64,000 nt of DNA, from positions 18,334-82,333 of the forward strand of contig JBIOIZ010000004.1 in the NCBI GenBank assembly GCA_044450385.1, read 5' to 3'. Under the pieces are notes generated by a model. That model was given only the letters and a program-made list of their open reading frames with translations, was not told the DNA's origin and did not search any database. The position numbers were made by a program, and so were the translations under genes. Shown here one piece after another: positions 5,640 to 41,173 of the stretch (the stretch's first letter is position 1; each line of letters opens with the position of its first letter). This DNA comes from Candidatus Dormibacteria bacterium (GTDB lineage Bacteria; Chloroflexota; Dormibacteria; Aeolococcales; Aeolococcaceae).

Positions 5640-5640
5640 T

Positions 5641-18988: not shown

Positions 18989-19024
18989 CTGACAACCGTC
19001 CCGAGAACGCCTATATTATATGTG
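18989..19024 (+). promoter_or_regulatory. Promoter of the FAH-hyuAB operon (CTGACA-17 nt-TATATT), overlapping heptad site c (CCTATATTATATGTG, 19010..19024)
   Basis: -10 ends at 19017 and the GTG start is at 19027 with no Shine-Dalgarno sequence, so the mRNA is predicted to be leaderless or nearly so. Confidence 0.45.
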
Positions 19025-19026
19025 AA

Positions 19027-26268: not shown

Positions 26269-27006
26269 ATGCCTGCTAAAGCGGCCGCGTCGAACCCGTC
26301 ACGCATGTCGCCGGATGGGCGCGGCCGCAAGCACCAACGCCGTCCACCGGAGACGGCCGGCGACTACGTGAGCAATGAGATCCGAGCGTGGATTCTCGAC
26401 GGGACGTTCGATCTCGGTTCGCGGCTCGATCAGCAGGTTCTCGCCGAACGCCTCGGAGTCAGCATCATTCCGGTCCGCGAGAGCCTGCGTCAGCTGGAAG
26501 CGGAGGGCCTCGTGGAGATCCTCCCGCGCCGCGGTGCGTTCGTCGCCAAGCTTTCGCTTCCACAGATCACGGAGATCAATCGCATCCGAGAACGCTTGGA
26601 GGAGCTCGCGCTTCGCCTCGCCGGTCCGCACTTTGAGGTGAGTCATCTCGAGAAAGCCGCCGAGCTCAATCGGCGGATGGCGATGATGCCGCTCGAAGGC
26701 CAGGCGCTGGCGTGGAGCGAGGTGAATCGCCAGTTCCACTTCACGTTATACGCGCCGTCCGATTCTCCGTTGCTGCTGCAGATGCTCAATACCCTCTGGG
26801 ATCGCATGCTGCTGTATCGCGAGGTCAATGCCGCCCGTGCTGATAATCGCGTCCATGCCGTCGACGAGCATGCGGAGATCCTGCGCAACGTCATGGCGGG
26901 TGACATCCCCGCGGCGGCGAGGTCGGTGCGCAGACACATCCGGCGGTCGGCGCGCGCTTTGTCGGTGAGCGAGCGTGCCGTTGCAGAAGACGGGAACCCG
27001 GCGTAG
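26269..27006 (+). CDS. GntR-family transcriptional regulator (FadR-like, FCD effector domain)
   Basis: LAERLGVSIIPVRESLRQLEAEGLVEILPRRGAFV wHTH plus an all-helical C-terminal domain. The start is uncertain (26269 or 26305). Confidence 0.88.
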   Translation: MPAKAAASNPSRMSPDGRGRKHQRRPPETAGDYVSNEIRAWILDGTFDLGSRLDQQVLAERLGVSIIPVRESLRQLEAEGLVEILPRRGAFVAKLSLPQITEINRIRERLEELALRLAGPHFEVSHLEKAAELNRRMAMMPLEGQALAWSEVNRQFHFTLYAPSDSPLLLQMLNTLWDRMLLYREVNAARADNRVHAVDEHAEILRNVMAGDIPAAARSVRRHIRRSARALSVSERAVAEDGNPA

Positions 27007-27032
27007 GTGCCGGCGGAATCGCGGAGGAGCTC

Positions 27033-28430
27033 ATGACCAACGTTGACGTGCCGACGCTCGACTCTCGAGACGTCATGACCGGCGGCGATCGGCATGACGC
27101 CCTCGTCGATCAGATCCGTCTCTTCGCCACGACGGGCGCCGACGACCGGATTCCACGGTTGCTCGATCTCATGCTCGACGGCGTCGGGGTGGCGGTCGCG
27201 GGAAGAGCCGCGCACGCCGGGCGCGTTGCCGCGAGCGTCTTCGGCTCCGCTGCAACGCCATGGGATGCCGCCTGGCTGCACGGCATGCAGATGCACGCTC
27301 TCGACTTCGACGATACGCATGAGCCTTCGCTCTGCCACACCGCCACGGCATTGCTCCCAGGCTTGCTGGCACTGGGACGAGCACACCGGCGCAGCGGCCG
27401 TGACCTGCTCGATGCATACGACCTCGGCATTCGATTCGTCGACGTCGCCTCGGCCTGCGGTCCGGCGCTCAACACCGCCGGAGCACATTCCACTGCGATC
27501 CTCGGTGGCCTCGGTTCGGCCGCCGCCTGCGGCTGGCTGCTGACCCATGACGCTGACATGACCGCCGACGCCGTGGAAGCTGCAGCGTTGCTGGCCGCCG
27601 GACTCGGGGCAGCGTTCGGCAGTGACGGCAAGCCACTCCAGGCGGCGCGAGCTTCAGAGATCGGCGTCCGCGCCGCAACGTTCGTGGCGGCCGGGTTGAA
27701 CGCACCGCGTGGTGCGGCGTTCGGCGATCAGGGAGTGCTGGCACTGTGGCTCGGAGTCGATGCACCGACCACGGTGCGCTGGGGCGACGAATGCGCCGGA
27801 GCGGCAGGACTGGTCGCCATCAAGCCATATCCGTCGTGCTTCCTCACCCACTCCACCATCGACGGAACGCTCTCGCTGCGCAGGGCGTTGGATCTCCATG
27901 GGGCTGCCGACGTCAAGCGCATGAGCGTTGAAGTCCACCCCCTGGCGGCGCAGATCGCTGACAAGACGTCGCTCGGCGCCGAGAACGCCAAGTTCAGTCT
28001 TCGCTACTGTGCGCTCGCCGCCATGACGGATGGACGGGTGAATGTCGATACCTTCAGCACCGCAACGCAGCAGCGTCTGGCCGACGACGCCGGGTTGTTC
28101 GAGTCGTGGGTGAACAGGGTGGATGTGCGTACCGACCCGGCGGCACCGGCGCTGGCCGCTCGCATCAGCGTGCTGACGGCAGATGGACGTGAGCGCGCGA
28201 TCACCGTGGCGGCGCCACGCGGAAGCCGTTCCGAGCCGTTGACACGCGACGACGTGATCGCGAAATTTCGCGACAACGCTTCCGGCGAGTACGACGGCAC
28301 CTCCGTGCGGCGTCTTCTCGATGACGTCATGAAGATGCCCACGGCGCCCGACATCGCCGCACTCGAACTGTTGACAGCGGCATGCACAGCAGCGCCGTCA
28401 GCACTGTGGGGTGTGCATGGCAACGCCTGA
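27033..28430 (+). CDS. MmgE/PrpD-family protein (2-methylcitrate dehydratase family), paralog 1
   Basis: 465 aa; ...HALDFDDTH... motif typical of the PrpD family. Confidence 0.88.
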   Translation: MTNVDVPTLDSRDVMTGGDRHDALVDQIRLFATTGADDRIPRLLDLMLDGVGVAVAGRAAHAGRVAASVFGSAATPWDAAWLHGMQMHALDFDDTHEPSLCHTATALLPGLLALGRAHRRSGRDLLDAYDLGIRFVDVASACGPALNTAGAHSTAILGGLGSAAACGWLLTHDADMTADAVEAAALLAAGLGAAFGSDGKPLQAARASEIGVRAATFVAAGLNAPRGAAFGDQGVLALWLGVDAPTTVRWGDECAGAAGLVAIKPYPSCFLTHSTIDGTLSLRRALDLHGAADVKRMSVEVHPLAAQIADKTSLGAENAKFSLRYCALAAMTDGRVNVDTFSTATQQRLADDAGLFESWVNRVDVRTDPAAPALAARISVLTADGRERAITVAAPRGSRSEPLTRDDVIAKFRDNASGEYDGTSVRRLLDDVMKMPTAPDIAALELLTAACTAAPSALWGVHGNA

Positions 28431-29190
28431 AGAGTTGGATGCGGTTCGCGACCGGCTGCTCGGGCTGATCGACGAGAGTCGCATTCGCACGGTGCGTATT
28501 GCACGGCCGGCGCCCGAGGTCATCGCCCGATTCAGTCGGATCACCGACCTGACGTCGACCGTGTCGGACGCGATGGATGCGCTCGGCGTTGGATCGGCGA
28601 TCCCTGGGCATGTCCTCGTCCCGCTCGCACCGGGTCAGCGTATCTGCGGGCCTGCCGTGACGATTCGATACGCCGGCCGCGGTGGTACTCCCGGCGCGCA
28701 CTACGCGCGCGACAGCCGCCCGCTGCTCGCCGACCGTGATCTCTACGGTGTGGGTCAGGCCGGCGACGTGGCGGTGTTCGATGTCGGCGGAGCCGCCGGG
28801 ACATCGGTGATGGGCAACCTCTCTGCGCTCTGGGCCGTTCGCCTCGGCATCGCCGGCTGCATCGTCGACGGTGGGGTGCGCGACATCGCGTCGATACGCA
28901 CCACAGGTCCGCACGTATGGAGCCGTGGCCGCACGCCGATCACCGGCCGCCATCGAGTCGAAGCCGTCGAGATCAACGGCACGGTCGCCATCTGCGGCGC
29001 TCAGGTACGCCCTGGTGACCTCATCGCTGCCGACGACAGTGGCGTGTGTGTCGTCCCGTTCGAAAGCGTGGACGCAGTGATCGCCCACTGCGAGGCTGCG
29101 GAGCGCGCCGAGGATGCCGTCACGAACCTGATCAGGAGCGGTGCAGCGCCGGCGGACGTGACTAGGGCGTTGAGCCCCGAGCGCTGGTAA
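28417..29190 (+). CDS. RraA-like / HMG-CHA aldolase-oxaloacetate decarboxylase family protein
   Basis: ...GDVAVFDVGG...MGNLSALWAVRLGIAGCIVDGGVRD... matches the RraA/dimethylmenaquinone-methyltransferase fold family. Confidence 0.8.
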   Translation: MATPEELDAVRDRLLGLIDESRIRTVRIARPAPEVIARFSRITDLTSTVSDAMDALGVGSAIPGHVLVPLAPGQRICGPAVTIRYAGRGGTPGAHYARDSRPLLADRDLYGVGQAGDVAVFDVGGAAGTSVMGNLSALWAVRLGIAGCIVDGGVRDIASIRTTGPHVWSRGRTPITGRHRVEAVEINGTVAICGAQVRPGDLIAADDSGVCVVPFESVDAVIAHCEAAERAEDAVTNLIRSGAAPADVTRALSPERW

Positions 29191-30613
29191 GCAGGCTGAT
29201 CACCTGTCGGACATCACTCTGATGCTCGATGTCGAGGATCAGGTCGGCGGCACGCGACCCCGCCTCGGCGCCGATCCCACCAGCCTCGATGCATTCCATG
29301 AACTTCTCACGGACCTCGGCCTCAGACATGGGGTTCTGCGGGCTTCCCTTCCCGAAGGCAGCTCTCCCCTCGTATGCCGTGCCGTTGCGCAGGCGAATCC
29401 GCACGATGCTCGTCATGTTGTTGTAACCGGCGCCTTCGGCCTCGGGATCGACCTCGAACCTGACGCGCCGCGTCATCTCCCTGACGTCGTTCCGCATCAC
29501 GACCGCATCTGTGAACTCTGCCAGGCCTGCACGCCGCGCGATGCACAGGATGGCCATGCAGAACTCCATGCTGAACTTCGCCGCCAGGTGATCGTGCGGG
29601 TCATGGTGGATCAGCGCGTTGGGCATGTGGCGGTTGGTCCCGACCGAAACCTCCTCGATGTCGGCAGCCTGAATGTCGTGCTTCTTGAGGAGCTCCATGA
29701 GCGCGAACATCGCCGGATGCGTCAGCGAGCCCGACGGATGCGGCTTGATCGAAACACCCGGGGTATCGAACGTCCAGGGCGCGCCGGGAGTGAATGCTGA
29801 TGGCTCGTACCCTCCTCCCGCGGCGCTGAAGAAGCCCCGTCGTGACTCGAGGATGTTGTTCGCAGCAGTGAACCCACGCTGTGCCATCGACGCGGCGAGC
29901 AGACCGCTCTCCGCCGCCCGGCCGGCGTGGAACGGCTTGGTCATCGTGCCGAAGTTCTCGCGAAGACCCGCCGCCTGTGACGCCGCGATGCTCAGCGCGG
30001 CCCTCGTGGCGTCGGGGCTCAACCCCAGGATGGAGGCGGCCGCGGCGCCTGATCCGATCGTGCCGACGGTCCCGGTCGAATGGAAGCCGTCGTCGTAGTG
30101 ACGCGGGTTGATCGCTTCGGAGACCTTGGTTTCAACCTCGACTCCGACCACGTAGGCGAGCAGTACCTCGGCGCCGGTTCTTCCACCCGCCTCTCCGAGC
30201 GCAAGCGCCGTCGGCAACACGGGAGCGGTTGGGTGCGTCAAGAGGCCATACACGCGATCGGGCAGGGTGGCGAGTTGTGTGTCGTCGTAGTCATCCGCAT
30301 GAATCGCCAGACCGTTGAGGAACGCGGCAAATCGGGGGGGCACGCGCAGCGTCGTTCCCAGGGCTGCCGCGTCAGTAGTTGCGCACCGATATGAGCCCAC
30401 CTCGTCTCGAGCAATCTGCGCAGCCTCCGTCCGCGATCCTGCGACAGCGAGACCGAACCCGTCGAGCATGGAATGCTTCGCCGCTGCAAGCGCCGTGGGT
30501 GGCACGTCGGCAAGGCGCGTCCTGCTGATGAATACAGCGGCGTGCTCGGTGGCATCAGTCACGGGGCCGTCCTCCACTCGTTGTAGTCTCGCGTTCGTTG
30601 CCTCCTGGCTCAT
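29162..30613 (-). CDS. MmgE/PrpD-family protein, paralog 2
   Basis: ...GLAIHADDYDDT... . ATG 30613 (MSQEATN...) is preferred over ORF start 30679. The 3' end overlaps the RraA-like gene by 29 nt (convergent). Confidence 0.88.
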   Translation of the reverse strand: MSQEATNARLQRVEDGPVTDATEHAAVFISRTRLADVPPTALAAAKHSMLDGFGLAVAGSRTEAAQIARDEVGSYRCATTDAAALGTTLRVPPRFAAFLNGLAIHADDYDDTQLATLPDRVYGLLTHPTAPVLPTALALGEAGGRTGAEVLLAYVVGVEVETKVSEAINPRHYDDGFHSTGTVGTIGSGAAAASILGLSPDATRAALSIAASQAAGLRENFGTMTKPFHAGRAAESGLLAASMAQRGFTAANNILESRRGFFSAAGGGYEPSAFTPGAPWTFDTPGVSIKPHPSGSLTHPAMFALMELLKKHDIQAADIEEVSVGTNRHMPNALIHHDPHDHLAAKFSMEFCMAILCIARRAGLAEFTDAVVMRNDVREMTRRVRFEVDPEAEGAGYNNMTSIVRIRLRNGTAYEGRAAFGKGSPQNPMSEAEVREKFMECIEAGGIGAEAGSRAADLILDIEHQSDVRQVISLLTSARGSTP

Positions 30614-30682
30614 ACAGCCTCCGTCCCGACAGCTGTGACATGGTACGACCGGCATACTTCCGGGGCGCAATCGCCGCAACGT

Positions 30683-30699
30683 TTAATATAGGATATATT
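30683..30699 (-). promoter_or_regulatory. AT-rich heptad element, site d: AATATATCCTATATTAA (minus strand), between divergent PrpD paralogs
   Basis: Direct reading; abuts the start codon region of the plus-strand PrpD gene. Confidence 0.45.
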
Positions 30700-32182
30700 G
30701 CCGGTGAGCCAAGACGCATCTCCCTCGAACGGGGTTCCGCGACCAACGAGCACCATCTCCGAAGAGCTCGCACGCTGGTCGGTCGGTGTCGGTGCCACTG
30801 ACCTTCCCGCGGACGTCGCCGACGATGTGCGCTGGCGACTCGTCGACCAGGTCGGCGTGTGCATAGCTGGATCACGCTCGGCGTCCGCCGGCATCATCCA
30901 CAGAGTCGCAATGAAGTCAGGTGGCACGCCGGAATCCACGAGCATGGTGTTCGGGAGCCGATTCCCCGCTCCGCTCGCGGGTTGGGTGAATGGTGCTGTG
31001 GGCCACGGTGCCGACTACGACGACATGCATGGCGTCGCCGCCGTCCACATCAGCTCCGTCGCCGTCCCGGCAGCTCTCGCGGCAGCCGAGGCTGTCGGCG
31101 CCACCGGAGCCCAATGCCTGGTGGCGATGGCGACGGGGGCTGAGCTCGCGTTGCGCATCAACACCGGAGCGCCGCCTCACCAGTTTCACCATCGCGGACT
31201 CCATGGCACCGGCGTCGCCGGCCCGTTCGCCGCGGCCGCGATCGCCGCGAAGCTCATGGGCCTCAACGAGGAGGCCACGACCAATGCGCTCGGGATGGCC
31301 GGCAGCAGGTCGTCCGGCCTCATGCAGACGCTGATTGACGGAAGCTGGGTCAAGCAGCTCCATCCCGGATGGGGAGTGCAGGGCGGCATCACGTGTGCGC
31401 AGCTCGCGGCCGAGGGTTTCACCGGCCCGCATGAGGTGATCGAGGGGAAGTTCGGCTTCTTCAATGCGCTCCTGCACGGTGACGAGCAGACCTTTCAGTT
31501 CGATCAGATCACGGACGGTCTCGGTGTGCGGTGGATCCTGCCGGACACGACTTACAAGCCCTGGCCCAACGGCGTGTGGAACCACGCCTCGATGGACGGC
31601 ACCATGGCCATCCTTGGGCGCGAGGGCTTGTCCACCAGCGATGTCGACCGGATCGACTGCTACGTGCCGCCGATCTGCATCCCGCTCGTCTGCGAACCCC
31701 GTGAAGCAAAGCTGAACCCTCGCTCGCTGTATCACATGAAGTTCAGCCTTCAGTACTCCGTGGCCATGCTTGCCGTGCTCGGCTCGGTGGAGGTCGACGA
31801 TTACAACGAGATCACGCTCGCCAACCAGGAGATCCGCGATTTCGCTGCGCGCGTGTATTGCCACGCGGATCCATCGATGGCTCCGGACACCTTCCCCGCT
31901 CGCGTTCGCGTGACGACGGTAGACGGCAGAGTCTTTGAAGAAGACGTGCCGGCCCAGCGCGGCACCAGGCTGAATCCCATGCTGCCGACGGACCATCGGC
32001 GCAAGTTTCGCGGCAATGTCCGTCCGAGCCTTGGCGACGAGCAGACGGACGAATTGCTGACGGCGCTCGAGGGTGCCTGGGACGCGGCCGATGTCCGCGC
32101 TCTCATGGCGCTGACGGTGCCACGCGCCGGTGCCGTGGGCGACGGCATTGCCGCATCGAAGGCCTCGGCCGATGGCCGGTGA
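30698..32182 (+). CDS. MmgE/PrpD-family protein, paralog 3
   Basis: ...VGHGADYDDMH...; 494 aa. Start is TTG 30698 or GTG 30704. Confidence 0.88.
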   Translation: MPVSQDASPSNGVPRPTSTISEELARWSVGVGATDLPADVADDVRWRLVDQVGVCIAGSRSASAGIIHRVAMKSGGTPESTSMVFGSRFPAPLAGWVNGAVGHGADYDDMHGVAAVHISSVAVPAALAAAEAVGATGAQCLVAMATGAELALRINTGAPPHQFHHRGLHGTGVAGPFAAAAIAAKLMGLNEEATTNALGMAGSRSSGLMQTLIDGSWVKQLHPGWGVQGGITCAQLAAEGFTGPHEVIEGKFGFFNALLHGDEQTFQFDQITDGLGVRWILPDTTYKPWPNGVWNHASMDGTMAILGREGLSTSDVDRIDCYVPPICIPLVCEPREAKLNPRSLYHMKFSLQYSVAMLAVLGSVEVDDYNEITLANQEIRDFAARVYCHADPSMAPDTFPARVRVTTVDGRVFEEDVPAQRGTRLNPMLPTDHRRKFRGNVRPSLGDEQTDELLTALEGAWDAADVRALMALTVPRAGAVGDGIAASKASADGR

Positions 32183-33116
32183 GCCGGAGGCGCAGTCACA
32201 TCCGGTCCCGTCAAACCGAGCACGAGAACTACTCCAGGGCGCGTACGACCTCCACGTTCACGTGCTTCCCGATGTGCTGCCGCGTCGCATCGATGACATC
32301 AGCCTGGCGGCCCGGTTCAGTGACCTCGGGCTGGGCGGTTTCGTGCTCAAATCCCACTACACGATGACCGCGGAGCGTGCCGCGCTCGTGCAGGCCGGGT
32401 CCACTGTCGAGGTGATCGGAGCGGTCACATTGAACTGGCCGGTGGGCGGTGTGAACCCGGTTGCGGTAGAGATCTGTGCACGTGCCGGCGGGAGGTTCGT
32501 GTGGCTCCCGACATTCGATTCCATCAACGAGGCGCACGCCGCCGAAGCGGCCGGCCAGGGAAGCCCTCCGGGCTGGCTCAAGCTCAAGAATGCCCTGCAA
32601 GCGAAGGGAATCAGCCCGCCGCCGATCAGGATGGTCGATTCCGATGGAAAGGTTCTCCCCGAGGTCCACACCGTCCTCGAGCTCGTCGCAGAGTACGACC
32701 TCGTGCTCTGCACGGGGCATCTCGGCGGTGAGGAAATTCTTGCCGTGGTCACCGCGGCACAGGAGGCCCGCGTGGAGCGAATCGTCATCACCCACCCTGA
32801 TTTCCCTTCGCAACACCTTGCACCCGAGCAGCAGCGCGAGCTCGGCGACCGCGGGTGTCTTCTCGAGCGATGCTTCGGAACGCCGCATGGCGGGCGCATC
32901 AGCTGGGAGGCGCTGTTCGCGAATGTGCGCGCCGCTGGGACTGAACACTCACTGTTCTCCAGCGATCTCGGCCAGCCTCACAATCCGCCGGTTGAAGATG
33001 GGATGGCGCTCATGGCCGATCGGTTTCTCGATGCGGGCTTCACCGAGAGCGAGGTGCGCACTATGGCGGTGACCAACTCTCGTCGCGTCGTGCCGGCGCT
33101 GGCGCAACGCGGATGA
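32172..33116 (+). CDS. Amidohydrolase-superfamily-like TIM-barrel protein (HxH motif; DUF6282-like by recollection)
   Basis: AYDLHVHVLPD...GFVLKSHY...CTGHLG...ITHPDF resembles a metal-dependent hydrolase pattern. ATG 32172 overlaps the upstream gene end. Confidence 0.6.
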   Translation: MAGEPEAQSHPVPSNRARELLQGAYDLHVHVLPDVLPRRIDDISLAARFSDLGLGGFVLKSHYTMTAERAALVQAGSTVEVIGAVTLNWPVGGVNPVAVEICARAGGRFVWLPTFDSINEAHAAEAAGQGSPPGWLKLKNALQAKGISPPPIRMVDSDGKVLPEVHTVLELVAEYDLVLCTGHLGGEEILAVVTAAQEARVERIVITHPDFPSQHLAPEQQRELGDRGCLLERCFGTPHGGRISWEALFANVRAAGTEHSLFSSDLGQPHNPPVEDGMALMADRFLDAGFTESEVRTMAVTNSRRVVPALAQRG

Positions 33117-34207
33117 CCGGCGAGAGTTCCTCCCCGGTGAGGATCGCCGTGATGGAGGGCGATGACATCGGCCCTGAGATCGTCCGGTCGACGACCCGCA
33201 TTCTCGACCGAGCCGCGAAGCAGCGCGCCGTCGACATCGAGTGGGTGCCGCTGCCCGCCGGGATCGCCGCGGTGGACAGCGAGGGGAGCACGCTGCCGAT
33301 CCGGACGCGGGAGGCGCTTCCGGATATCCCGGGGTGGATTCTTGGGCCCGTCTCTCATCGTGACTACCCCATGGGCGACGCTCGCTATGTGAACCCGAGC
33401 GGCTACCTGCGCAAGAACTTCGAGCTGTACTCGAACGTACGCCCGGCGCGCGGCTGGCCCGGCGTCGAATGCGTGCACCCCGATATGAATGTGGTGATCG
33501 TCCGGGAGAACACTGAGGGCTTCTACGCCGATCGCAATATGCTCGACGGCAACGGCGAGCTCCGCCCCGACCTGGACACGGTGATCTCGGTGCGCCTGGT
33601 CACGAGGCGCGCGAGCATGAGGGTCGCGCGTCAGGCGTTCGCACTTGCTCGCGAGCGTGACGGGCTGCGCAAGGTCACGTGCGTGCACAAAGCCAACGTG
33701 CTCCGACGCGGAGACGGTCTCTTCCTCGAGTGCTGCCGCGATGTCGCGGCAGAGAACCCGGACATCGCGTTCGATGATTTTCTCGTCGATGCCTTCGCGA
33801 TGCGTCTCATCCTGCGCCCCGAGGTGACCGACGTGGTGGTGACCACGAACATGTTCGGCGACATCCTGTCCGACGAGGCGGCCGGACTGGTCGGTGGCCT
33901 GGGTCTCGCACCAGGGTTGAACATTGGTGACGACCACGCCATGGCGCAGGCGGTGCACGGATCCGCCCCCGACATCGCCGGTAAGGGCATCGCCAATCCC
34001 ATCGCCGAGATCCTTTCCGGATCGCTGCTGCTGCGCTGGCTCAGCAGAGTGCACGGACAGCCCGACCTTGTCGCCGCCGCGGACGATGTCGACTCGGCGA
34101 TTGCGACAACGCTCGCATCCGGCGAGACGCGGACGCCCGACCTCGGCGGGACCGCCACCACCGAGGGCATTACGAGAGCCATCCTCGCTGCGCTCGATGG
34201 CGGCTGA
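33113..34207 (+). CDS. Isocitrate/isopropylmalate dehydrogenase-family beta-decarboxylating dehydrogenase, paralog 1
   Basis: RIAVMEGDDIGPEI..., ...TNMFGDILSDEAAGLVGGLGLAPG...; ATGA overlap upstream. Confidence 0.9.
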   Translation: MTGESSSPVRIAVMEGDDIGPEIVRSTTRILDRAAKQRAVDIEWVPLPAGIAAVDSEGSTLPIRTREALPDIPGWILGPVSHRDYPMGDARYVNPSGYLRKNFELYSNVRPARGWPGVECVHPDMNVVIVRENTEGFYADRNMLDGNGELRPDLDTVISVRLVTRRASMRVARQAFALARERDGLRKVTCVHKANVLRRGDGLFLECCRDVAAENPDIAFDDFLVDAFAMRLILRPEVTDVVVTTNMFGDILSDEAAGLVGGLGLAPGLNIGDDHAMAQAVHGSAPDIAGKGIANPIAEILSGSLLLRWLSRVHGQPDLVAAADDVDSAIATTLASGETRTPDLGGTATTEGITRAILAALDGG

Positions 34208-34252
34208 GGATCGTCCGTCGTACCCGTGCGCACCACGATAGGAGGAGAGTCC

Positions 34253-35605
34253 GTGGCCGGACAGTCGCCGCATCTGACGCCTGACGAGGTTCGACGCATC
34301 CAGGAGGCATTCGCGCGCAGGCGGCATCCGGGGAGCTTCGAACCCGGCCGTTGGGCGGTGAGTCCGTACAACCGGGATGCGTCGGTCCTGGGGGCTCGAT
34401 TCCCGGATCACTATCCCCACTCGACGACATTGCGCGACATCACGTTGCGGGTCATCGAGCAGGCGCCAGGCGTCACGGTGGACCGCGCGCAACGCCGGCG
34501 CATCGGCGAGGCGCTCCTCGAAGCGGGCGTTCCCGAGATCGAGGTGTCCGCGCATGGCTGGGGCATGTCCCCCGCGGCGTTGCGTGATGAGGTGACCCAT
34601 CTCAAATCAATACGGCCAGATCTCGGCATCAAGATGGGCGCTACCCAGACCGAAGCGATGGTCGACATCGCCGCCGAGGTGGGCGTGACGCTCGCCGAGT
34701 TCTGGATGCCGGCGCTGCCGGAGGCGACGCCGATCTACTGGTCCGAGGCATATCGCACCTCCTGGGCGGGAGGTGACTGGCGCACGCTGGGCGTGCCCAC
34801 GACGCTCGACCAGGAGATCGAACGCGGGATCCAGCTGATCGCCCGCATCCGGTCACACGGCCTGCGCGCAAGCACCGGCATCAATCTCCTCACCCTTGTG
34901 GACGACAACCACCTCGAGCGCTACTGCACCGCCATGCATGCTGCGGGCGTCGACGAGATCTGGCTCTCGGACGGTGCCGCAGGGATAGCTCCCGAGGGCT
35001 GGAATCACATCGTGTCGATGGTTCGCCGGTACGCACCCGGATGTCGAATCGGCACGTATATCCGAAATGCGTTCGGGCTGGGAGTGGCGTGCGCGCTCGC
35101 CGCTGTGCACGCCGGCGCCGAGGTCACCGAGGTGTCCGTCAATGGAATCTCGGCGACGGCCGGTCAGGTGGATCTCGCACAGATGGCGACGGCCCTCGAG
35201 GTGCTGTATGGGGTGCACACCGGCATTCACCTCGAACAGATGAATTCGCTCGCGCGGCTTGTCGAGGACATCAGCGGTGTGCAGCTCGCTGCCGCACATG
35301 CCGTCACAGGTCGCGGCGCGCACAACTGGGGCGGCACGGAGATCGTCGTCCAGGAACTCAAGGTTGAGCCCCTCCTCCATTGGGCCTACGAGCCTTCACT
35401 CGTCGGCGCCGAGAAGGAGTGGATCGTCAACGGGACCAGCGGTATGTGGACGGTCCAGGACAAGCTGGACCAGCTGGGAGTCAAGGTCGATCGGGAGAAG
35501 ATTCCCCTCATCTGGCAGGAGATCGTCGATGACGCCACCGTGCGTCGCCGCTCCCTGACCGACGACGAGATCCGCGCGATCTGCACCCGGGTCGCCGGCG
35601 GCTAG
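34253..35605 (+). CDS. HMGL-like / DRE-TIM metallolyase (isopropylmalate-homocitrate-citramalate synthase-like) protein with a duplicated active-site motif
   Basis: TTLRDITLRVIEQAPGV...GVPEIEVS resembles DTTLRDGEQSPG...G...IE.G. GTG 34253 sits 7 nt after AGGAGGAG and is preferred over 34226. Confidence 0.7.
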   Translation: MAGQSPHLTPDEVRRIQEAFARRRHPGSFEPGRWAVSPYNRDASVLGARFPDHYPHSTTLRDITLRVIEQAPGVTVDRAQRRRIGEALLEAGVPEIEVSAHGWGMSPAALRDEVTHLKSIRPDLGIKMGATQTEAMVDIAAEVGVTLAEFWMPALPEATPIYWSEAYRTSWAGGDWRTLGVPTTLDQEIERGIQLIARIRSHGLRASTGINLLTLVDDNHLERYCTAMHAAGVDEIWLSDGAAGIAPEGWNHIVSMVRRYAPGCRIGTYIRNAFGLGVACALAAVHAGAEVTEVSVNGISATAGQVDLAQMATALEVLYGVHTGIHLEQMNSLARLVEDISGVQLAAAHAVTGRGAHNWGGTEIVVQELKVEPLLHWAYEPSLVGAEKEWIVNGTSGMWTVQDKLDQLGVKVDREKIPLIWQEIVDDATVRRRSLTDDEIRAICTRVAGG

Positions 35606-35611
35606 CGCGCT

Positions 35612-35626
35612 CGCCTGTCGCAGGCG
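35612..35626. terminator. Short GC hairpin CGCCTG-tcg-CAGGCG between convergent genes
   Basis: Perfect 6-bp stem read directly. There is no U-tract, so it is only a weak bidirectional terminator candidate. Confidence 0.35.
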
Positions 35627-35635
35627 GACGATGGC

Positions 35636-36676
35636 TCAGGTGGGGAGGGCGGCGATCACGGCCTCGGTGACCTCGGAGGTGCCGGCCCTGCCGCCGAGAT
35701 CCGGCGTGAGCGTCTCACCGCGTTCGATGACGAGCGCGACGGCAGCCTCGACGCGCTGCGCGGCATTCACCTCGCCGAGGTGACGGAGCATCATGGCCCC
35801 GCTGAGGATGGCGCCCATCGGATTGGCTACTCCCTGTCCGGCGATGTCCGGCGCCGACCCGTGGACGGGCTCGAACAGCGAGGGATGGCGGCCACTCGGG
35901 TCGATGTTCCCGCTTGCGGCGAGCCCGAGCCCCCCCTGCAGCGCCGCACCGAGATCGGTGAGGATGTCGGCGAACAGGTTCGAGCCCACCACGACGTCGA
36001 CGGCGTCGGGTCGGAGCACCATGCGCGCCGCCATCGCGTCCACGAGGACGCGGTCCAGGACGACGTCCGCATATTCCTGGTGCACCTCCTCGACGACCTG
36101 GTCCCAGAGAACGTAGGTGTACCGGCTCGCGTTGGACTTGGTCACGCTGGTGAGCGAGCCGGAACGCTCGCGCGCACGGTCGAACGCGTACCGCACGGTC
36201 CGATCGATGGCGGCTCGCGTGAACACAGGCACCTCGACGGCGACTTCCAGCGATGTGCCGGTGTGGACGCGTCCGCCGGCGCCCGAGTACTCGCCCTCCG
36301 TGTTCTCACGGATGAAGAGCATGTCGATGTCCTCGGGGCCGCGATCCGCCAGCGGCCCTCGCACTCCGCGAAGCAGGTTGACAGGTCGGACATTGACATA
36401 CAGCTCGAATGCTTTGCGAATCGGCAGCAGCAGTCCCCACAGCGTCACGTGATCAGGGATTTCGGGGACCCCGACGGCACCCAGGTAGATGGCGGCGAAG
36501 TCATCGAGCACTTCGAGGCCGTCGTCAGGCATCATCGCGCCGGTCCGCAGGTAGAGATCAGATCCCCAGTCGAGCTCGTGAAAATCGAGGTCACACACGC
36601 TCGAGAGCACGCGCATCCCGGCAGGCACGACCTCTCTGCCGATCCCGTCTCCGGCGATGACTGCGATCCGCTGCAT
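35636..36676 (-). CDS. Isocitrate/isopropylmalate dehydrogenase-family enzyme, paralog 2 (tartrate/D-malate dehydrogenase-like)
   Basis: MQRIAVIAGDGIGREV..., ...SNLFADILTDLGAALQGGLGLAAS... Confidence 0.9.
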   Translation of the reverse strand: MQRIAVIAGDGIGREVVPAGMRVLSSVCDLDFHELDWGSDLYLRTGAMMPDDGLEVLDDFAAIYLGAVGVPEIPDHVTLWGLLLPIRKAFELYVNVRPVNLLRGVRGPLADRGPEDIDMLFIRENTEGEYSGAGGRVHTGTSLEVAVEVPVFTRAAIDRTVRYAFDRARERSGSLTSVTKSNASRYTYVLWDQVVEEVHQEYADVVLDRVLVDAMAARMVLRPDAVDVVVGSNLFADILTDLGAALQGGLGLAASGNIDPSGRHPSLFEPVHGSAPDIAGQGVANPMGAILSGAMMLRHLGEVNAAQRVEAAVALVIERGETLTPDLGGRAGTSEVTEAVIAALPT

Positions 36677-36764
36677 GCCTCAGATCACCCCTCTGCTGAT
36701 GCCCCGATGGATATCGGCGGCCGCAATGAGTCCGAGGCGTCGGGGACGAAGCTCAGGACTCGAA

Positions 36765-36783
36765 TTTATATATGATATATGAC
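36765..36783. promoter_or_regulatory. AT-rich heptad element, site e: TTTATATATGATATATGAC (reverse complement reads CATATAT CATATAT)
   Basis: Ends 2 nt before ATG 36786 with no Shine-Dalgarno sequence, so a leaderless start is predicted. Also lies upstream of the divergent dehydrogenase gene. Confidence 0.45.
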
Positions 36784-36785
36784 CC

Positions 36786-37679
36786 ATGGTCGACTCGATC
36801 GGTCTCGTCACGCCCACGGGCTCGCTGGGTCTCCGCTTGCGGCAGTTGCTGGAGCGCCACGGCGCCGTGCTCATGCCGGGTGCGCACAACGGCCTCGCCG
36901 CCATTCAGGCAAGGAATGCCGGCTTCGACGCCCTGTATCTGTCGGGCGCCGCAATGTCGGCGTCGATGGGGTTGCCCGACGTCGGCGTGATCACCATCGA
37001 CGACGTGTGCTTCTTCATCCGGCAGGTTGTCCGCGCCACAAGTCTGCCGGTTCTCGTGGACGGTGACACCGGGCACGGCGAAGCGCTCAACGTCGCCTAC
37101 ATGGTTCGCGCCTTCGAGGATGCCGGCGCTGCAGCAGTGCACATCGAAGACCAGATCCTGCCGAAGAAGTGCGGCCATCTGCGCGACAAGCGCATGGCGA
37201 CTCCAGAGGACATGGTGATCCGGATCAGGGCAGCCGTGATGGCGAGGCGCGACATGCTCGTCGTCGCTCGTACCGATGCGCTCGAGAGTGAGGGACTCGA
37301 CGGAGCCATCGCTCGCAGTCTCCGCTACCTCGACGCAGGCGCCGATGCGATCTTTCCCGAAGCCCTGACGAGTGAGTCCATGTTCCGCGAGTTCGCATCG
37401 CGTGTTGATGCACCCCTGCTTGCGAATCTCACGGAATTCGGGCAGACGCCCGCCTTCACCGCTGCCGAGATCGAGGAGATGGGCTACAAGATGGTGATCT
37501 GGCCCACGACATCGATGCGCCTCGCCGCACGTGCCCAGATGGATGCATACACCGCCATCCGCGATACCGGCACCACGACCTCGCTGCTCGACCGCCTGTT
37601 CACTCGAGAGGACATGGAGGCGACCCTGAACTACCCGGCCTACGAAGCGCTCGACGCCAGGCTCGCCACCGGTCGATGA
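36786..37679 (+). CDS. Methylisocitrate lyase / PEP-mutase-superfamily (isocitrate-lyase-like) enzyme
   Basis: KKCGH signature, ...GADAIFPEAL...; 297 aa. Confidence 0.88.
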   Translation: MVDSIGLVTPTGSLGLRLRQLLERHGAVLMPGAHNGLAAIQARNAGFDALYLSGAAMSASMGLPDVGVITIDDVCFFIRQVVRATSLPVLVDGDTGHGEALNVAYMVRAFEDAGAAAVHIEDQILPKKCGHLRDKRMATPEDMVIRIRAAVMARRDMLVVARTDALESEGLDGAIARSLRYLDAGADAIFPEALTSESMFREFASRVDAPLLANLTEFGQTPAFTAAEIEEMGYKMVIWPTTSMRLAARAQMDAYTAIRDTGTTTSLLDRLFTREDMEATLNYPAYEALDARLATGR

Positions 37680-37810
37680 CTTGGTTCGTGGTCCCGGCAC
37701 AGCCGCGCGAGACACATCCAATGCGTGTTGACAGGCGCTGAGCGGGACAAACCCTCGCATCCGCGCCGTCGTTCGATTGCCTGCCACTCACTCTGGAGGA
37801 CCGTAACAGC

Positions 37811-38902
37811 ATGGCGCGACACACAATCACCATCATTCCGGGCGACGGGGTTGGTCCCGAATTGAGCGCCGCGGCATGCCGGGCCATCGATGCGACCGGT
37901 GTCGAGATCTCGTGGGAAGTTCACAACGCCGGCCTCGCCGTCATGGAGGCAGGCGGTGACCCGTTGCCCCCGGCGGTGGTCGAGTCCATCCGGCGGAACA
38001 AGGTTGCACTCAAAGGGCCGCTCACCACGCCGCTGGGGACGGGCATCCGGTCCGTCAACGTCGCGCTGCGCCGCGAGCTCGACCTCTTTGCCCTGGTACG
38101 CCCCCTGAAGTCATATCCCGGGGTGCGCAGTCGCTTCGAGGACATCGACCTCGTCGTGGTGCGGGAGAACACCGAGGACCTCTATGCGGGCATCGAGTTC
38201 GCCGCCGGCGAACCCGAGACGCTCGAGCTGATCGCGGATATCGAACGTCTCAACGGAAGGAAGATCCGCTCCGATGCCGGCATCAGCATCAAGCCCATCT
38301 CGATCTTCGGCACACGGCGTGTGTTCCGCTTCGCGTTCCAGTGGGCCATCGACAACGGGCGTCATATGGTCACGGCTGTTCACAAAGCGAACATCATGAA
38401 ATACACGGACGGGTTGTGGCTGCGCATCGCCGAGGAGGTGAGCCACGAGTTCCCGCAGATCGAGTTCAACGATCGCATCGTCGACAACATGGCGATGCAG
38501 CTTGTGCAAAAGCCCGAGATGTACGACGTCATGGTCATGCCCAACCTCTACGGCGACATCCTCACCGATCTCGGGGCAGGGATGATCGGCGGCCTCGGTA
38601 TCGCTGCCGGGGCGAACTTCGGCGACGGTGTGGCCATGTTCGAGGCCACCCACGGCAGCGCGCCGAAATATGCGGGACAGAACAAGGCGAATCCGATGGC
38701 CATGATGTTCAGCGGCGTCCTCATGCTGCGCTACATCGGCGAGCAAGACGCGGCCGACCGGCTCGAACGGGCACTCGCGCAGGTCATCGCCGAGGGACGC
38801 AGCGTGACCTACGACATGAAGGCCAAACGCGACGACCCGAGCGCGGTCGGGACCGCAGAGGTGGCGGGTGCGGTTGTCGAGGCACTCGGACGCTCAGCCT
38901 GA
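37811..38902 (+). CDS. Isocitrate/isopropylmalate dehydrogenase-family enzyme, paralog 3 (NAD-isocitrate/homoisocitrate dehydrogenase-like)
   Basis: TITIIPGDGVGPEL..., ...PNLYGDILTDLGAGMIGGLGIAAG...; GGAGGA Shine-Dalgarno sequence upstream. Confidence 0.9.
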   Translation: MARHTITIIPGDGVGPELSAAACRAIDATGVEISWEVHNAGLAVMEAGGDPLPPAVVESIRRNKVALKGPLTTPLGTGIRSVNVALRRELDLFALVRPLKSYPGVRSRFEDIDLVVVRENTEDLYAGIEFAAGEPETLELIADIERLNGRKIRSDAGISIKPISIFGTRRVFRFAFQWAIDNGRHMVTAVHKANIMKYTDGLWLRIAEEVSHEFPQIEFNDRIVDNMAMQLVQKPEMYDVMVMPNLYGDILTDLGAGMIGGLGIAAGANFGDGVAMFEATHGSAPKYAGQNKANPMAMMFSGVLMLRYIGEQDAADRLERALAQVIAEGRSVTYDMKAKRDDPSAVGTAEVAGAVVEALGRSA

Positions 38903-40031: not shown

Positions 40032-40658
40032 GTGAGTCCGACGCAGGCTACCGGGCGTGTCACCCCGGCAGGAGACGTCGTCAAGGCTCCGCCGCCCGTC
40101 CGGACGCAACTCCTCATCTGGCTGCGCATCGGCACGGCGAGCTTTGGTGGTGGCCAGGGCACACGACTCAACGTGTATCGCGCTGTCGTCGAGCAGGGCG
40201 GTTGGATGTCCCCACTCGAATTCGCGGAAGCCTGGGCGGTCTGTCAGATCGGCCCAGGCATGAGTCTCATCGCCCTCGCTGCCCTGATCGGCTATCGATT
40301 CTCACGTGCGGCCGGGGCCGTCGCGGCATTGCTGGGACTCCTGGTTCCGAGCGGCCTGATCACGGTCGCAATCACCATCGTGTATCTTCGGCTTGACGAA
40401 TATCCGCTCACCAAGTCGGCATTGCACGGGGTCGTGGCGGCGGTGCTTGGACTGGCCATAGCGAATGTCATCTTCAATGCTCGCCCCCTGCTCGCGGCGA
40501 GCTTCGAGAAGGGCCTCGGCATGCTGGTCCTCGCCATTGTGTTGATCTTCACCGACGCGATCGTCTTTGTAGTGGTCAATCCACCGGTGCTTGCGCTGCT
40601 CCTGCCTTCGGCCGTGATCTTCGCGTTGTGTTCACTGCTACGGGCGCGGCTCGCATGA
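40032..40658 (+). CDS. chrA: Chromate-ion-transporter (CHR) family protein, half-size, N-type
   Basis: LIWLRIGTASFGGGQG motif; ~200 aa with 5-6 TM segments. Confidence 0.85.
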   Translation: MSPTQATGRVTPAGDVVKAPPPVRTQLLIWLRIGTASFGGGQGTRLNVYRAVVEQGGWMSPLEFAEAWAVCQIGPGMSLIALAALIGYRFSRAAGAVAALLGLLVPSGLITVAITIVYLRLDEYPLTKSALHGVVAAVLGLAIANVIFNARPLLAASFEKGLGMLVLAIVLIFTDAIVFVVVNPPVLALLLPSAVIFALCSLLRARLA

Positions 40659-41173
40659 GCCGAGTCAGTTACGTGCTGCTCTTTCTCTTCGTGCTCAAGG
40701 CTCAGGTCATCTCGAACAACGGCATCGCCTCACTGCCGAGCTTGCACGCCGATCTGATCGGTCAAGGATGGGCCACCGACTCACAGTTCGCAGGAGCGCT
40801 GGTCGTCGGTCAATTGACGCCTGGGCCCAACGGGCTGTGGATCGTCAGCCTCGGCTATATCGTGGCCGGACCGCTTGGGGCCATCGTCGCGCTGTGTGCC
40901 GCCACGATTCCGCCGATGCTCGTGCTGCCGATCGACGCGCTGTACCGGCGGTTCGGCTCATTGCCCGGTGTCGAGGGATTCGTCCGAGGTATCGGACTCG
41001 CGGTGATCGGGGTCTCCCCGCTTGTCCTGGCGCAGGTGTTGCAGGGCAGCGGATTCGACAACTGGACGGCTGTCATCGCCGCGGTTGCGTTCGTCATGGT
41101 GTTGAGCCGTCGGGTTCCCAATATTGTCGTGGTGGCACTCGGCGCGGTGGCCGGCGTGTTGATCTATCGGTGA
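40655..41173 (+). CDS. chrA: Chromate-ion-transporter (CHR) family protein, half-size, C-type
   Basis: ATG 40655 overlaps the upstream stop (ATGA). ...QLTPGPNGLWIVSLGY... is a CHR motif. Confidence 0.85.
   Translation: MSRVSYVLLFLFVLKAQVISNNGIASLPSLHADLIGQGWATDSQFAGALVVGQLTPGPNGLWIVSLGYIVAGPLGAIVALCAATIPPMLVLPIDALYRRFGSLPGVEGFVRGIGLAVIGVSPLVLAQVLQGSGFDNWTAVIAAVAFVMVLSRRVPNIVVVALGAVAGVLIYR

Follow-up and report, generated by a model that had tools for sequence, protein, structure and literature searches.

The cluster described for the degradation of itaconate and methylsuccinate encodes the family III CoA-transferase Ict, the CitE-like lyase Ccl and a methylsuccinate isomerase of the MmgE/PrpD family (PMC12290011). 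The island analyzed here lies in a 64,000-nucleotide window of the 3.33-Mb genome of an uncultured soil bacterium (Dormibacterota) and shares with this cluster a family III CoA-transferase, a CitE/HpcH-like thioester lyase and MmgE/PrpD proteins for substituted succinates. However, it carries no itaconyl-CoA hydratase, an acyl-CoA dehydrogenase is found only in one related contig (L181), and the described cluster has no counterpart to its three PrpD paralogs nor to its homoisocitrate dehydrogenase (HICDH)-like, amidohydrolase-fold, homocitrate synthase (HCS)-like and HyuAB genes. The island also recalls the 2-oxo-acid elongation modules, HCS–homoaconitase LysT/U–HICDH of the alpha-aminoadipate lysine pathway and LeuA–LeuCD–LeuB, in that a tight core operon pairs an HCS-like DRE-TIM protein with a dehydrogenase whose clade includes a context-assigned HICDH, one or two further genes lying between them or alongside. 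It differs from them by: (i) the lack of an aconitase-family isomerase, a PrpD and an amidohydrolase-fold protein being encoded instead, (ii) the loss of metal ligands and acetyl-CoA-enolising residues in its HCS-like protein, and (iii) a catabolic setting (uptake transporter, GntR) and an accessory distribution. With the methylcitrate cycle (PrpC–PrpD–Acn–PrpB), it has in common a PrpB-equivalog lyase and PrpD-superfamily proteins in one region, but its PrpD paralogs are not PrpD equivalogs, PrpC and PrpE are missing, aconitase is encoded elsewhere in the genome and PrpB lies outside the conserved core. The lower pathway of protocatechuate 4,5-cleavage (LigI lactonase, LigJ hydratase and LigK, an RraA-like CHA aldolase) similarly uses amidohydrolase-fold enzymes on tricarboxylate lactones and enoates and an RraA-like aldolase, which there cleaves a hydroxy-oxo-tricarboxylate. 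However, the island has no ring-cleavage genes, its RraA-like gene is far under the LigK cutoffs, and its DUF6282 protein resembles LigI-like proteins at the fold level only (TM about 0.5).

Gene families were assigned with Pfam and NCBIfam, which confirmed in place every gene that an initial annotation had listed between 30698 and 38902 and had read as one 8-kb gene set. This set does not form a single conserved unit. The operon PrpD1–DUF6282–IDH_A–HMGL-like (30698-35605), accompanied by a GntR regulator and an uptake transporter, is the conserved core, whereas the tartrate-DH-type gene (IDH_B), PrpB and IDH_C are absent from the conserved module of more distant relatives; these three genes and the RraA-like gene are later additions in the host lineage. 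Furthermore, the proposed boundaries cut the functional unit, which reaches left to about 14012: the segment is the right-hand part of an accessory catabolic island (about 14.0-38.9 kb of the window), all genes of which are under purifying selection (dN/dS).

The core operon is entirely on the plus strand. Its first gene, PrpD1 (30698-32182; Pfam), overlaps DUF6282 (32130-33116; Pfam) by 53 nt with the longest ORF, or by 11 nt if DUF6282 starts, as is probable, at the ATG in 32172. DUF6282 in turn overlaps IDH_A (33113-34207) by 4 nt (ATGA), and an 18-nt gap precedes the HMGL-like gene (34226-35605); both IDH_A, a beta-decarboxylating dehydrogenase (Iso_dh), and the latter were assigned by Pfam and NCBIfam. 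The 2-methylcitrate dehydratase function that had been considered for the PrpD proteins is not supported for any of the three paralogs, which resemble epimerase or decarboxylase members of the family (IDS epimerase, cis-aconitate decarboxylase). None exceeds 55 bits with the PrpD equivalogs (cutoffs 575-950; 54.9 bits against 950 for PrpD1), and at E ≤ 1e-3 none has a match to any solved structure that bears the name 2-methylcitrate dehydratase. The nearest solved structure is IDS epimerase for PrpD1 and PrpD2 (E 9e-55 for PrpD2), and the B. subtilis IRG1 homolog and IDS epimerase are the nearest ones for PrpD3. The second protein of the operon, previously described as amidohydrolase-like, has a predicted model with an amidohydrolase fold (pLDDT 86.6), Foldseek matches to gamma-resorcylate decarboxylase, LigI-like hydrolases and PTE-like lactonases, and the invariant residues H42, H44, H197, H222 and D279 (HxH…H…H…D), consistent with a metalloenzyme. 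Its slot is occupied in L083 by an unrelated Amidohydro_2 protein, LigI-like by sequence. Together with PrpD1, it holds the isomerase slot of the leu/lys operons, in agreement with the proposal that PrpD stands in the place of aconitase. IDH_A has intact catalytic Tyr, Lys, Asp and Arg, and its specificity loop (N-P-S-G-Y-L-R-K) follows the pattern N-x-S-G-x-L-R-K shared with P0153, a context-assigned HICDH to which it is 63% identical and whose NCBIfam score profile is alike. P0153 heads a LysW-type lysine cluster, next to LysT/U/X/Z/J/W/Y and a homocitrate synthase that passes its equivalog. IDH_A falls in a clade that includes the homoisocitrate dehydrogenase P0153, itself assigned by gene context only; members of this clade are also found in unrelated contexts (L178).

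The HMGL-like protein, a DRE-TIM protein of the IPMS/HCS type, is nearest to homocitrate synthase and had been annotated as a condensing or cleaving enzyme. Since the canonical metal ligands, the catalytic Glu and the HxSGIH histidines are all absent, either reaction by the known mechanism is unlikely, and this part of the annotation is unsupported. Its gene has the lowest dN/dS of the region (0.034) and is the most strongly conserved one there. The best explanation is that this protein is probably functional and essential to the module, without the canonical metal-dependent Claisen mechanism. Distant members (34-47% identity) adjoin TctABC or LIV transporters, PrpD genes, CoA-transferases or ligases; one of them (L176) has two PrpB-like genes and HyuAB alongside.

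The left part of the island encodes: (i) on the minus strand, a LIV/HAAT-type ABC uptake transporter with two ATPases, two permeases and a Peripla_BP_6 binding protein (14012-18728; Pfam), (ii) on the plus strand, an operon FAH–HyuA–HyuB–CitE/HpcH-like lyase (DUF6986)–family III CoA-transferase (18937-26177; Pfam and NCBIfam), a GntR/FCD regulator (26269-27006; Pfam), PrpD3 (27033-28430; Pfam) and a lineage-specific RraA-like aldolase/decarboxylase of the CHA/HMG-aldolase family (28411-29190; Pfam and NCBIfam), and (iii) PrpD2 (29162-30679, minus strand; Pfam), divergent from PrpD1. This setting of uptake transporter, GntR regulator, CoA-transferase and lyase is catabolic and sustains the degradative reading of the initial annotation.

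The gene island is rare and accessory. DNA searches found the segment of about 3800-38900 in only two of 40 same-genus genomes, and the module is present in three of the 41 genus genomes searched, source genome (G000) included. In the class sample, four of 301 genomes have the HMGL-like gene, and in the phylum sample one of 201 does, the source genome being counted in both. Examination of co-occurrence across genomes showed that the core operon recurs in four contigs (L181, L092, L091 and L083), which supports it as a conserved, co-inherited module; judging by contigs of the same length among the matches to each gene, seven further contigs appear to have both IDH_A and HMGL homologs. L181 has PrpD2 (minus strand, 67%) divergent from PrpD1 (69%)–DUF6282 (62%)–IDH_A (70%)–HMGL (75%), followed in inverted order by PrpD3–GntR–CoA-transferase (71%)–HpcH (64%)–HyuB (73%)–HyuA. 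The arrangement is HpcH–CoA-transferase–GntR–PrpD3–PrpD2 (minus strand)–PrpD1–DUF6282–IDH_A–HMGL–LivKH in L092, IDH_A–HMGL–LivKHMGF in L091 and GntR–LivKHMGF–PrpD1 (51%)–IDH_A (45%)–Amidohydro_2–HMGL (62%) in L083. The core recurs in distant soil contigs, where an uptake transporter and a GntR regulator accompany it each time, the orthologous transporter lying directly before or after it in L091, L092 and L083; in closer relatives, it also travels with PrpD2, PrpD3 and HyuAB–CitE-like–CoA-transferase. Orthologs of the FAH–Hyu operon (64-73% identity) flank it both in L181, where their order is inverted, and in L092, where it is unchanged. These two contigs also carry orthologs of the regulator (54% in L181, 52% in L092; a GntR gene is also first in the L083 cluster), of PrpD3 and, in the same divergent position, of PrpD2 (61-67%), while PrpD1 orthologs show 51-69% identity in L083, L092 and L181. 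No counterpart of the RraA-like gene was found in L092 or L181.

Three lineage-specific genes follow the core operon, and none belongs to the conserved module of L181, L092 or L083. IDH_B (35636-36676, minus strand) is of the tartrate/D-malate dehydrogenase type (TIGR02089, 481.9 vs 470.4) and has no ortholog among the matches listed in 38 of the 40 same-genus genomes. PrpB (36786-37679, plus strand; TIGR02317, 387.5 vs 354.4), a methylisocitrate-lyase-like C-C lyase, is the sole copy in the genome, has all the motifs KKCGH, DGDTGHG, HIEDQ, ARTDA and FPEA, and is likewise missing, among the matches listed, from 38 of these 40 genomes. IDH_C (37811-38902, plus strand) shares 83% amino-acid identity with the isocitrate dehydrogenase (ICDH) copy conserved across the genus (G000:C35) and retains the isocitrate S-x-N motif (IRSVNVALR). 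Of the three Iso_dh dehydrogenases formerly grouped as paralogs of one pathway, IDH_A is placed in the homoisocitrate-DH-like clade, IDH_B passes the tartrate-DH equivalog, and IDH_C is a recent duplicate of the housekeeping enzyme.

A 12-nt AT-rich box, ATATAGGATATA, has six matches with at most two mismatches in the window (0.18 expected) and, with at most one mismatch, only three in the whole genome, all on the plus strand. Copies 1 (18887-18898, exact match) and 3 (36768-36779, ATATATGATATA) each lie in the spacer of a divergent gene pair, transporter and FAH–Hyu operon for copy 1, IDH_B and PrpB for copy 3, whereas copy 2 (30686-30697) abuts the start of PrpD1, with no Shine-Dalgarno sequence after it. 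Copies 2 and 3 are kept in L001, L002, L089 and L090, with diverged flanks for copy 2, and in L181 the place of copy 2 is taken by a related repeat, ATAGAAT in tandem. Found upstream of all three transcription units (FAH–Hyu operon, PrpD1 operon and PrpB), this genome-unique box suggests that they form one regulon, and it supports the earlier association of PrpB with the PrpD1 operon. The box is unlike the typical GntR/FadR palindrome and could be a promoter element instead of an operator. A role in the pathway is suggested for PrpB by the shared box, for IDH_B by its position beside a box, and for IDH_C and the RraA-like gene by adjacency only.

The region could also be a chance neighbourhood of unrelated small organic-acid genes or paralogs in an accessory region, with the PrpD1 operon, tartrate DH, PrpB and IDH_C each having its own substrate and no common pathway. 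This would account for the absence of the three right-hand genes beside the core in L181, L092 and L083, for their own spacers of 109-131 nt and alternating strands, for IDH_C being a simple ICDH duplicate, and for tartrate DH and PrpB each passing a standard equivalog. However, it leaves aside the common upstream box, and distant contigs join similar genes: HMGL-like, PrpB-like, HyuAB and PrpD genes are in one operon in L176, IDH_A-like, RraA-like, PrpB-like and GntR genes are grouped in L179, and the Hyu and PrpD/IDH/HMGL units are still linked in L181 despite rearrangement. We therefore consider such a mosaic unlikely.

A biosynthetic chain elongation of 2-oxo acids, in which an HCS-like synthase, a PrpD/amidohydrolase isomerase and an HICDH-like dehydrogenase would lead to an amino acid or secondary metabolite, is still less plausible. 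The tight operon with overlapping junctions and the HCS-like/HICDH-like pair do mirror the logic of lysine (AAA) and leucine synthesis, but the HCS-like protein has lost its catalytic residues, the module is confined to three of 41 genus genomes, uptake transporters and a GntR/FCD regulator always accompany it, as a CoA-transferase and a thioester lyase usually do, and canonical leuA/leuC/leuB and HCS/LysT-like genes are present elsewhere in the genome. An ordinary methylcitrate cycle for propionate, combining PrpB, one PrpD paralog, a nearby citrate synthase and an aconitase from elsewhere, is very improbable. The full catalytic motif set of PrpB, a citrate synthase 3.5 kb downstream and AcnA in the genome would suit it. 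However, this synthase, the product of a core gene of the genus, scores above the cutoff of its own equivalog as a type I GltA, prpC, prpE, acnD and prpF are all absent, 38 of 40 same-genus genomes have no PrpB, and the PrpD paralogs resemble 2-methylcitrate dehydratase neither in equivalog scores nor in structure matches.

For the degradative reading, every chemical step is drawn from family membership, and the substrates and activities of the enzymes are putative. The acid would be taken in by the LIV-type ABC system, and the PrpD paralogs would act on the carbon alpha to a carboxylate of its succinate moiety, by epimerisation, isomerisation or dehydration. DUF6282 may open a lactone, or hydrate or decarboxylate an unsaturated intermediate, and would jointly with PrpD1 replace the aconitase-family isomerase of the leu/lys pathways. 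As previously noted, the window holds no aconitase/LeuCD-family gene; the locus is aconitase-free but the organism is not, since a PF00330 search of the genome gave matches only on contigs C27, C6 and C3 (AcnA and two LeuC-like genes), and these aconitases could take part in the pathway. IDH_A would convert a homoisocitrate-like 3-substituted (2R)-malate into a 2-oxo-dicarboxylate by oxidative decarboxylation. As a guess, the HCS-like protein might perform a metal-independent C-C or C-H step on a tertiary-alcohol acid, with an Arg/Lys at the former His position substituting for the metal. CoA transfer and the CitE-like thioester lyase would drain products to acetyl-CoA and a 2-oxo acid, and PrpB to pyruvate and succinate, while IDH_C and the tartrate/D-malate DH may convert isocitrate-type and D-malate-type side products.

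The HyuAB-type enzymes point to lactam opening or carboxylation and have no obvious slot in a pure hydroxy-tricarboxylate route, which counts against this explanation. As to the substrate, our best guess would be a homocitrate/homoisocitrate-type hydroxy-tricarboxylate (C6-C7) or a lactone or lactam thereof. Overall, we conclude with moderate confidence that the island is probably a single regulon, serving to take up and degrade a branched, carboxylate-rich acid with a succinate sub-structure.

The analyzed window belongs to a Dormibacterota MAG, and its gene map was obtained by GC3-based ORF calling combined with Pfam and NCBIfam searches, which confirmed all the family assignments of the initial annotation. 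From left to right, the island comprises a LIV-type ABC transporter (14012-18728, minus strand), an operon encoding FAH, HyuA, HyuB, a CitE/HpcH-like lyase and a family III CoA-transferase (18937-26177, plus strand), a GntR/FCD regulator followed by PrpD3 and an RraA-like protein (26269-29190, plus strand), and PrpD2 (29162-30679, minus strand). These are followed by the core operon (30698-35605, plus strand), which encodes PrpD1, a DUF6282 protein, the dehydrogenase IDH_A and a HMGL-like protein of the DRE-TIM superfamily, then by a tartrate-dehydrogenase-type Iso_dh gene (IDH_B; 35636-36676, minus strand), PrpB (36786-37679, plus strand) and an isocitrate dehydrogenase (ICDH)-type Iso_dh gene (IDH_C; 37811-38902, plus strand). 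Genes encoding a D-2-hydroxyacid dehydrogenase, two chromate transporters and a type I citrate synthase lie to the right of IDH_C. DNA searches found the region from about 3800 to 38900 in only two of the 40 other genomes of the genus (G272 and G266), whereas the citrate synthase and 2-hydroxyacid dehydrogenase genes located beyond it are widespread among these 40 genomes. The HMGL-like gene was found in four of 301 genomes sampled in the class and in one of 201 sampled in the phylum, both counts including the source genome. The island region is thus accessory. Since the 2-hydroxyacid dehydrogenase and citrate synthase genes are directly adjacent in another genome (G346), the chromate-transporter pair that separates them here (40032-41173) is a separate small insertion.

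Conserved gene order was traced outward from two anchors, the HMGL-like protein and IDH_A. A contig from farmland (L181) carries PrpD2 (67% identity, minus strand) divergent from PrpD1 (69%), DUF6282 (62%), IDH_A (70%) and HMGL (75%), followed in inverted orientation by PrpD3 (49%), GntR (54%), CoA-transferase (71%), CitE-like lyase (64%), HyuB (73%) and HyuA. The same set is present in L092 in the order of the window and is directly followed by LivK and LivH. Other arrangements are IDH_A-HMGL-LivKHMGF in L091 and GntR-LivKHMGF-PrpD1 (51%)-IDH_A (45%)-Amidohydro_2-HMGL (62%) in L083. Seven additional contigs also appear to carry homologs of IDH_A and HMGL together, as judged from hits of the two proteins on contigs of the same length. 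Thus, the conserved unit is the four-gene operon with a regulator and a transporter and, in closer relatives, it also takes in PrpD2, PrpD3 and the Hyu-lyase-CoA-transferase genes, whose linkage with the core operon withstands a rearrangement. The HyuAB operon and the core gene set therefore form one grouping, which narrows the search for the substrate. The initial annotation had drawn the unit too short: it actually reaches leftward to the transporter, the HyuAB-lyase-CoA-transferase operon, the GntR gene and two more PrpD genes. Conversely, it had included in one set IDH_B, IDH_C and PrpB, which are lineage-specific additions. None of these three genes, nor RraA, is found in L181, L092, L091 or L083, and no ortholog of the tartrate-dehydrogenase-type gene or of PrpB was listed in the other 38 genomes of the genus.

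The HMGL-like protein matches PF00682 (94.9 bits) and has the TIM-barrel fold of the family. Its predicted structure (pLDDT 91.8) has as best Foldseek match the homocitrate synthase of Sulfolobus (6ktq, E 1e-21), and a look-up in the ESM Atlas returned only generic clusters resembling isopropylmalate or homocitrate synthases (IPMS/HCS). It belongs to a small and sharply separated subfamily, with about 65 clusters at 34-97% identity before a fall to 29% for canonical enzymes, that has its own N-terminal extension of about 55 residues and an AWxGxDWR insertion. The metal-binding Asp/Glu following TLR is replaced by Val, Thr or Ala in all 24 aligned members, and the HxH of the HxHND motif, which provides metal ligands, is changed to Tyr-x-Arg/Lys in the nine members nearest to the HMGL-like protein. 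The alignment also indicates that this protein has GINLL, WGGTEI and SATAGQ, respectively, in place of the catalytic Glu (ED motif), the HxSGIH histidines and the GERAGN loop. We considered that the TLRDI/TLRVI repeat could result from a recent duplication of 15 nt that broke the active site, and rejected this explanation because LRDITLR is present in all 24 members and can be aligned to the canonical D-T-TLR block with no residue gained or lost. Furthermore, the dN/dS ratio calculated with the L002 ortholog (0.034) is the lowest of the region, that of citrate synthase being 0.045. The loss of ligands and catalytic residues together with this strong constraint argues for a functional protein for which the textbook mechanism would be impossible. 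The condensing or cleaving activity read by the initial annotation should not be assumed to follow the known mechanism.

More distant members of the subfamily are located in or beside TctABC or LIV operons, next to genes encoding PrpD, CoA-transferases or ligases, or acyl-CoA dehydrogenases. Of 13 independent contexts, about seven include a PrpD gene at a distance of no more than 10 kb. One of them, a 10-gene operon (L176:858-13558; TctC-HMGL-TctB-TctA-PrpB-like-HyuB-HyuA-PrpD-MFS-PrpB-like), is a second, independent architecture uniting the same families. In L080, two ligand-less HMGL-like paralogs (10001-11365 and 20065-21365) are found less than 10 kb apart in a single genome, in a neighbourhood that also encodes a PrpD protein, CoA ligases and acyl-CoA dehydrogenases.

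The three dehydrogenases were assigned by inspecting their motifs, their gene context and the profile of their NCBIfam scores. IDH_A has the full catalytic set of beta-decarboxylating dehydrogenases, i.e., Tyr, Lys, Asp metal ligands and an Arg triad (motifs ENTEGFY, HKAN and GDILSD; arginines of LR, VRP and VRE). Its substrate loop reads N-P-S-G-Y-L-R-K, and thus lacks the S-x-N motif by which isocitrate dehydrogenases bind the gamma-carboxylate, with N-P-S at the corresponding positions. It passed none of the NCBIfam equivalogs, its highest scores being obtained with the archaeal isopropylmalate/homoisocitrate subfamily and the AksF2 homoisocitrate dehydrogenase model. A homolog sharing 63% identity with IDH_A (P0153) matches it in both loop and score profile, the two proteins remaining below the AksF2 cutoff of 540 (302.9 for IDH_A and 324.7 for P0153). 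P0153 heads a Chloroflexota cluster in which the next gene passes the homocitrate synthase equivalog and is followed by LysT/U, LysX, LysZ, LysJ, LysW and LysY; its gene context thus identifies it as a homoisocitrate dehydrogenase. This cluster (L180:8001-17080) is of the LysW type of lysine biosynthesis. A second homolog at 63% identity, from a Bacillales MAG, is surrounded by RraA-like, PrpB-like, GntR and TRAP-transporter genes. Taken together, these two homologs suggest that the substrate of IDH_A is most likely homoisocitrate or a close analogue, although the IDH_A clade is outside every NCBIfam homoisocitrate dehydrogenase equivalog and we know of no assayed enzyme in it. IDH_B passes the tartrate/D-malate dehydrogenase model TIGR02089 (481.9 for a cutoff of 470.4) and does not reach a second model, NF006048 (427.3 for 501). 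IDH_C retains the isocitrate-binding S-x-N (S-V-N in IRSVNVALR) and shares 83% protein identity with a copy on another contig of the same genome (G000:C35:3730-4761). The gene conserved in nearly all genomes of the genus, with about 80% nucleotide identity, is of this latter type and not IDH_C, which accompanies the rest of the island in both G272 and G266. IDH_C is thus a duplicated housekeeping isocitrate dehydrogenase.

PrpD1, PrpD2 and PrpD3 all have the N- and C-terminal MmgE/PrpD domains (PF03972 and PF19305). However, none reaches the cutoffs of the 2-methylcitrate dehydratase equivalogs of NCBIfam, NF042438 (950) and NF006943 (575): PrpD1 scores 54.9 and 23.4 bits, PrpD2 24.3 and 18.4, and PrpD3 38.8. 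Their closest relatives of solved structure are the iminodisuccinate (IDS) epimerase, a Bacillus subtilis IRG1 homolog and cis-aconitate decarboxylase. The MmgE/PrpD family now also includes a methylsuccinate isomerase, and its substrates are thought to have a succinate sub-structure in common (PMC12290011). A dehydratase acting in place of aconitase is possible, but there is no reason to prefer it to an epimerase, an isomerase or a decarboxylase. The DUF6282 protein is predicted to adopt the (beta/alpha)8 barrel of the amidohydrolase superfamily (pLDDT 86.6), with H42, H44, H197, H222 and D279 (HxH of strand 1, His of strands 5 and 6, Asp of strand 8) invariant in 19 homologs, and the closest structures found by Foldseek are gamma-resorcylate decarboxylase, LigI-like lactone hydrolases and PTE-like lactonases. 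In L083, this slot is occupied by an amidohydrolase-fold protein without detectable sequence similarity to DUF6282, with a weak resemblance to a LigI-like hydrolase, which suggests that the module requires a step catalyzed by an enzyme of this fold. DUF6282 was also considered as a synteny anchor. Among its 75 genome loci, 72 are outside Dormibacterota (Solirubrobacterales, Actinomadura and other Actinomycetota; about 44-65% identity) and none of these has PrpD, Iso_dh or HMGL neighbours, so that the module cannot be recognised from DUF6282 alone.

The AT-rich 12-mer ATATAGGATATA has two perfect copies, one at 18887, some 40 nt ahead of FAH, and one at 30686 that abuts the PrpD1 start. A third copy, at 36768 and immediately ahead of PrpB, differs by a single mismatch. 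The window contains six matches with at most two mismatches, compared to 0.18 expected, and these three copies are the only ones with at most one mismatch in the whole 3.33-Mb assembly. All three are located in divergent intergenic regions (transporter/FAH, PrpD2/PrpD1 and tartrate-dehydrogenase-type gene/PrpB). In four related loci (L001, L002, L089 and L090), the boxes preceding PrpD1 and PrpB are kept whereas the flanking spacer has diverged; the PrpD2/PrpD1 spacer harbors a related tandem repeat, GATAGAATATAGAAT, in L181 and AT-rich half-sites in L092. The box may therefore be read as a candidate common operator or specialised promoter element defining one regulon, into which PrpB seems to have been recruited. 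Neither at PrpD1 nor at PrpB is the box followed by a Shine-Dalgarno sequence, so their transcripts are possibly leaderless. Terminator and promoter scans gave nothing exceeding shuffled expectation. A degenerate tandem repeat, GAGAATAGGAAATAGG, lies at 18850-18869 in the transporter/FAH spacer, 20 nt upstream of the first box. A weaker copy of the 12-mer box with two mismatches, CTATAGTATATA, is located at 5643-5654 (minus strand), just past a gene ending at 5639, and is followed by about 1 kb (5640-6662) in which the GC3-based caller found no gene.

It had been proposed that this locus follows a synthase-isomerase-dehydrogenase plan in which the aconitase-type isomerase is replaced. This plan holds for 30698-35605, except that the active site of the "synthase" has been remodelled. 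When the whole assembly was searched with PF00330, aconitase-family genes were found on three other contigs only: C27 (beside leuA and leuB), C6 (AcnA, 979 aa) and C3 (beside an HCS-like gene). Therefore, the locus is devoid of aconitase but the organism is not. An ordinary methylcitrate cycle could account for PrpB, which passes TIGR02317 (387.5 for a cutoff of 354.4) with complete catalytic motifs (PKKCGH, DGDTGHG, HIEDQ, ARTDA and FPEA), a result also compatible with a related lyase such as a dimethylmalate lyase. This explanation is less well supported: of the prpC, prpD and prpB set with acn or acnD-prpF, only the PrpB equivalog was recovered, the citrate synthase beside the island being a type I GltA and the aconitases being on other contigs. 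Two further candidates for a second prp-like locus were rejected, a PrpD1 paralog on C18 neighbouring zinc-transporter and pyrophosphatase genes, and the second citrate synthase of the genome (L174:6246-7826, contig C30), which bears two CBS domains at its N-terminus and is not flanked by prp genes.

A biosynthetic elongation module, for which the lysine cluster headed by P0153 offers a parallel, is also less well supported, the HMGL-like protein having its synthase residues replaced and the conserved unit including a transporter. A mosaic of unrelated genes would fit IDH_B, IDH_C and PrpB, and is less well supported given the box shared by the FAH, PrpD1 and PrpB upstream regions and the linkage of the Hyu and core units that persists in L181. 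Overall, the core is a real, uncharacterised and conserved gene module within an accessory island, and a variant on known clusters for organic-acid catabolism, in which the ligand-less DRE-TIM protein is the unusual element. The island would most likely serve to import a branched polycarboxylic acid and to degrade it, possibly to acetyl-CoA, pyruvate, succinate and 2-oxo acids. The closest relatives of the core operon point specifically to homocitrate/homoisocitrate chemistry. A more precise joint reading, which we consider unlikely as a whole, would be an aconitase-independent handling of a homocitrate-type tertiary-alcohol tricarboxylate: PrpD and the amidohydrolase-fold enzyme would shift the hydroxyl (or perform an equivalent rearrangement) to feed the homoisocitrate-type dehydrogenase, and the DRE-TIM protein, derived from an HCS, would form or cleave a C-C bond of that substrate independently of metal, with Arg/Lys replacing it. 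If true, no earlier catalytic member of the superfamily would have dispensed with metal.

Dormibacterota are a widespread uncultured lineage of soil and permafrost. Searches of the accessible literature yielded no description of a pathway involving this gene set or DUF6282, nor of a ligand-less DRE-TIM subfamily. The latter is the most testable oddity, since it is strongly conserved yet devoid of every residue held essential to the chemistry of the superfamily, and it repeatedly adjoins carboxylate transporters in several lineages. For Dormibacterota, the island would represent a new route of organic-acid catabolism. It would also place several large uncharacterised groups in a functional context for the first time, namely DUF6282, the non-dehydratase branches of PrpD, the N-x-S Iso_dh clade and the DRE-TIM subfamily without metal ligands.
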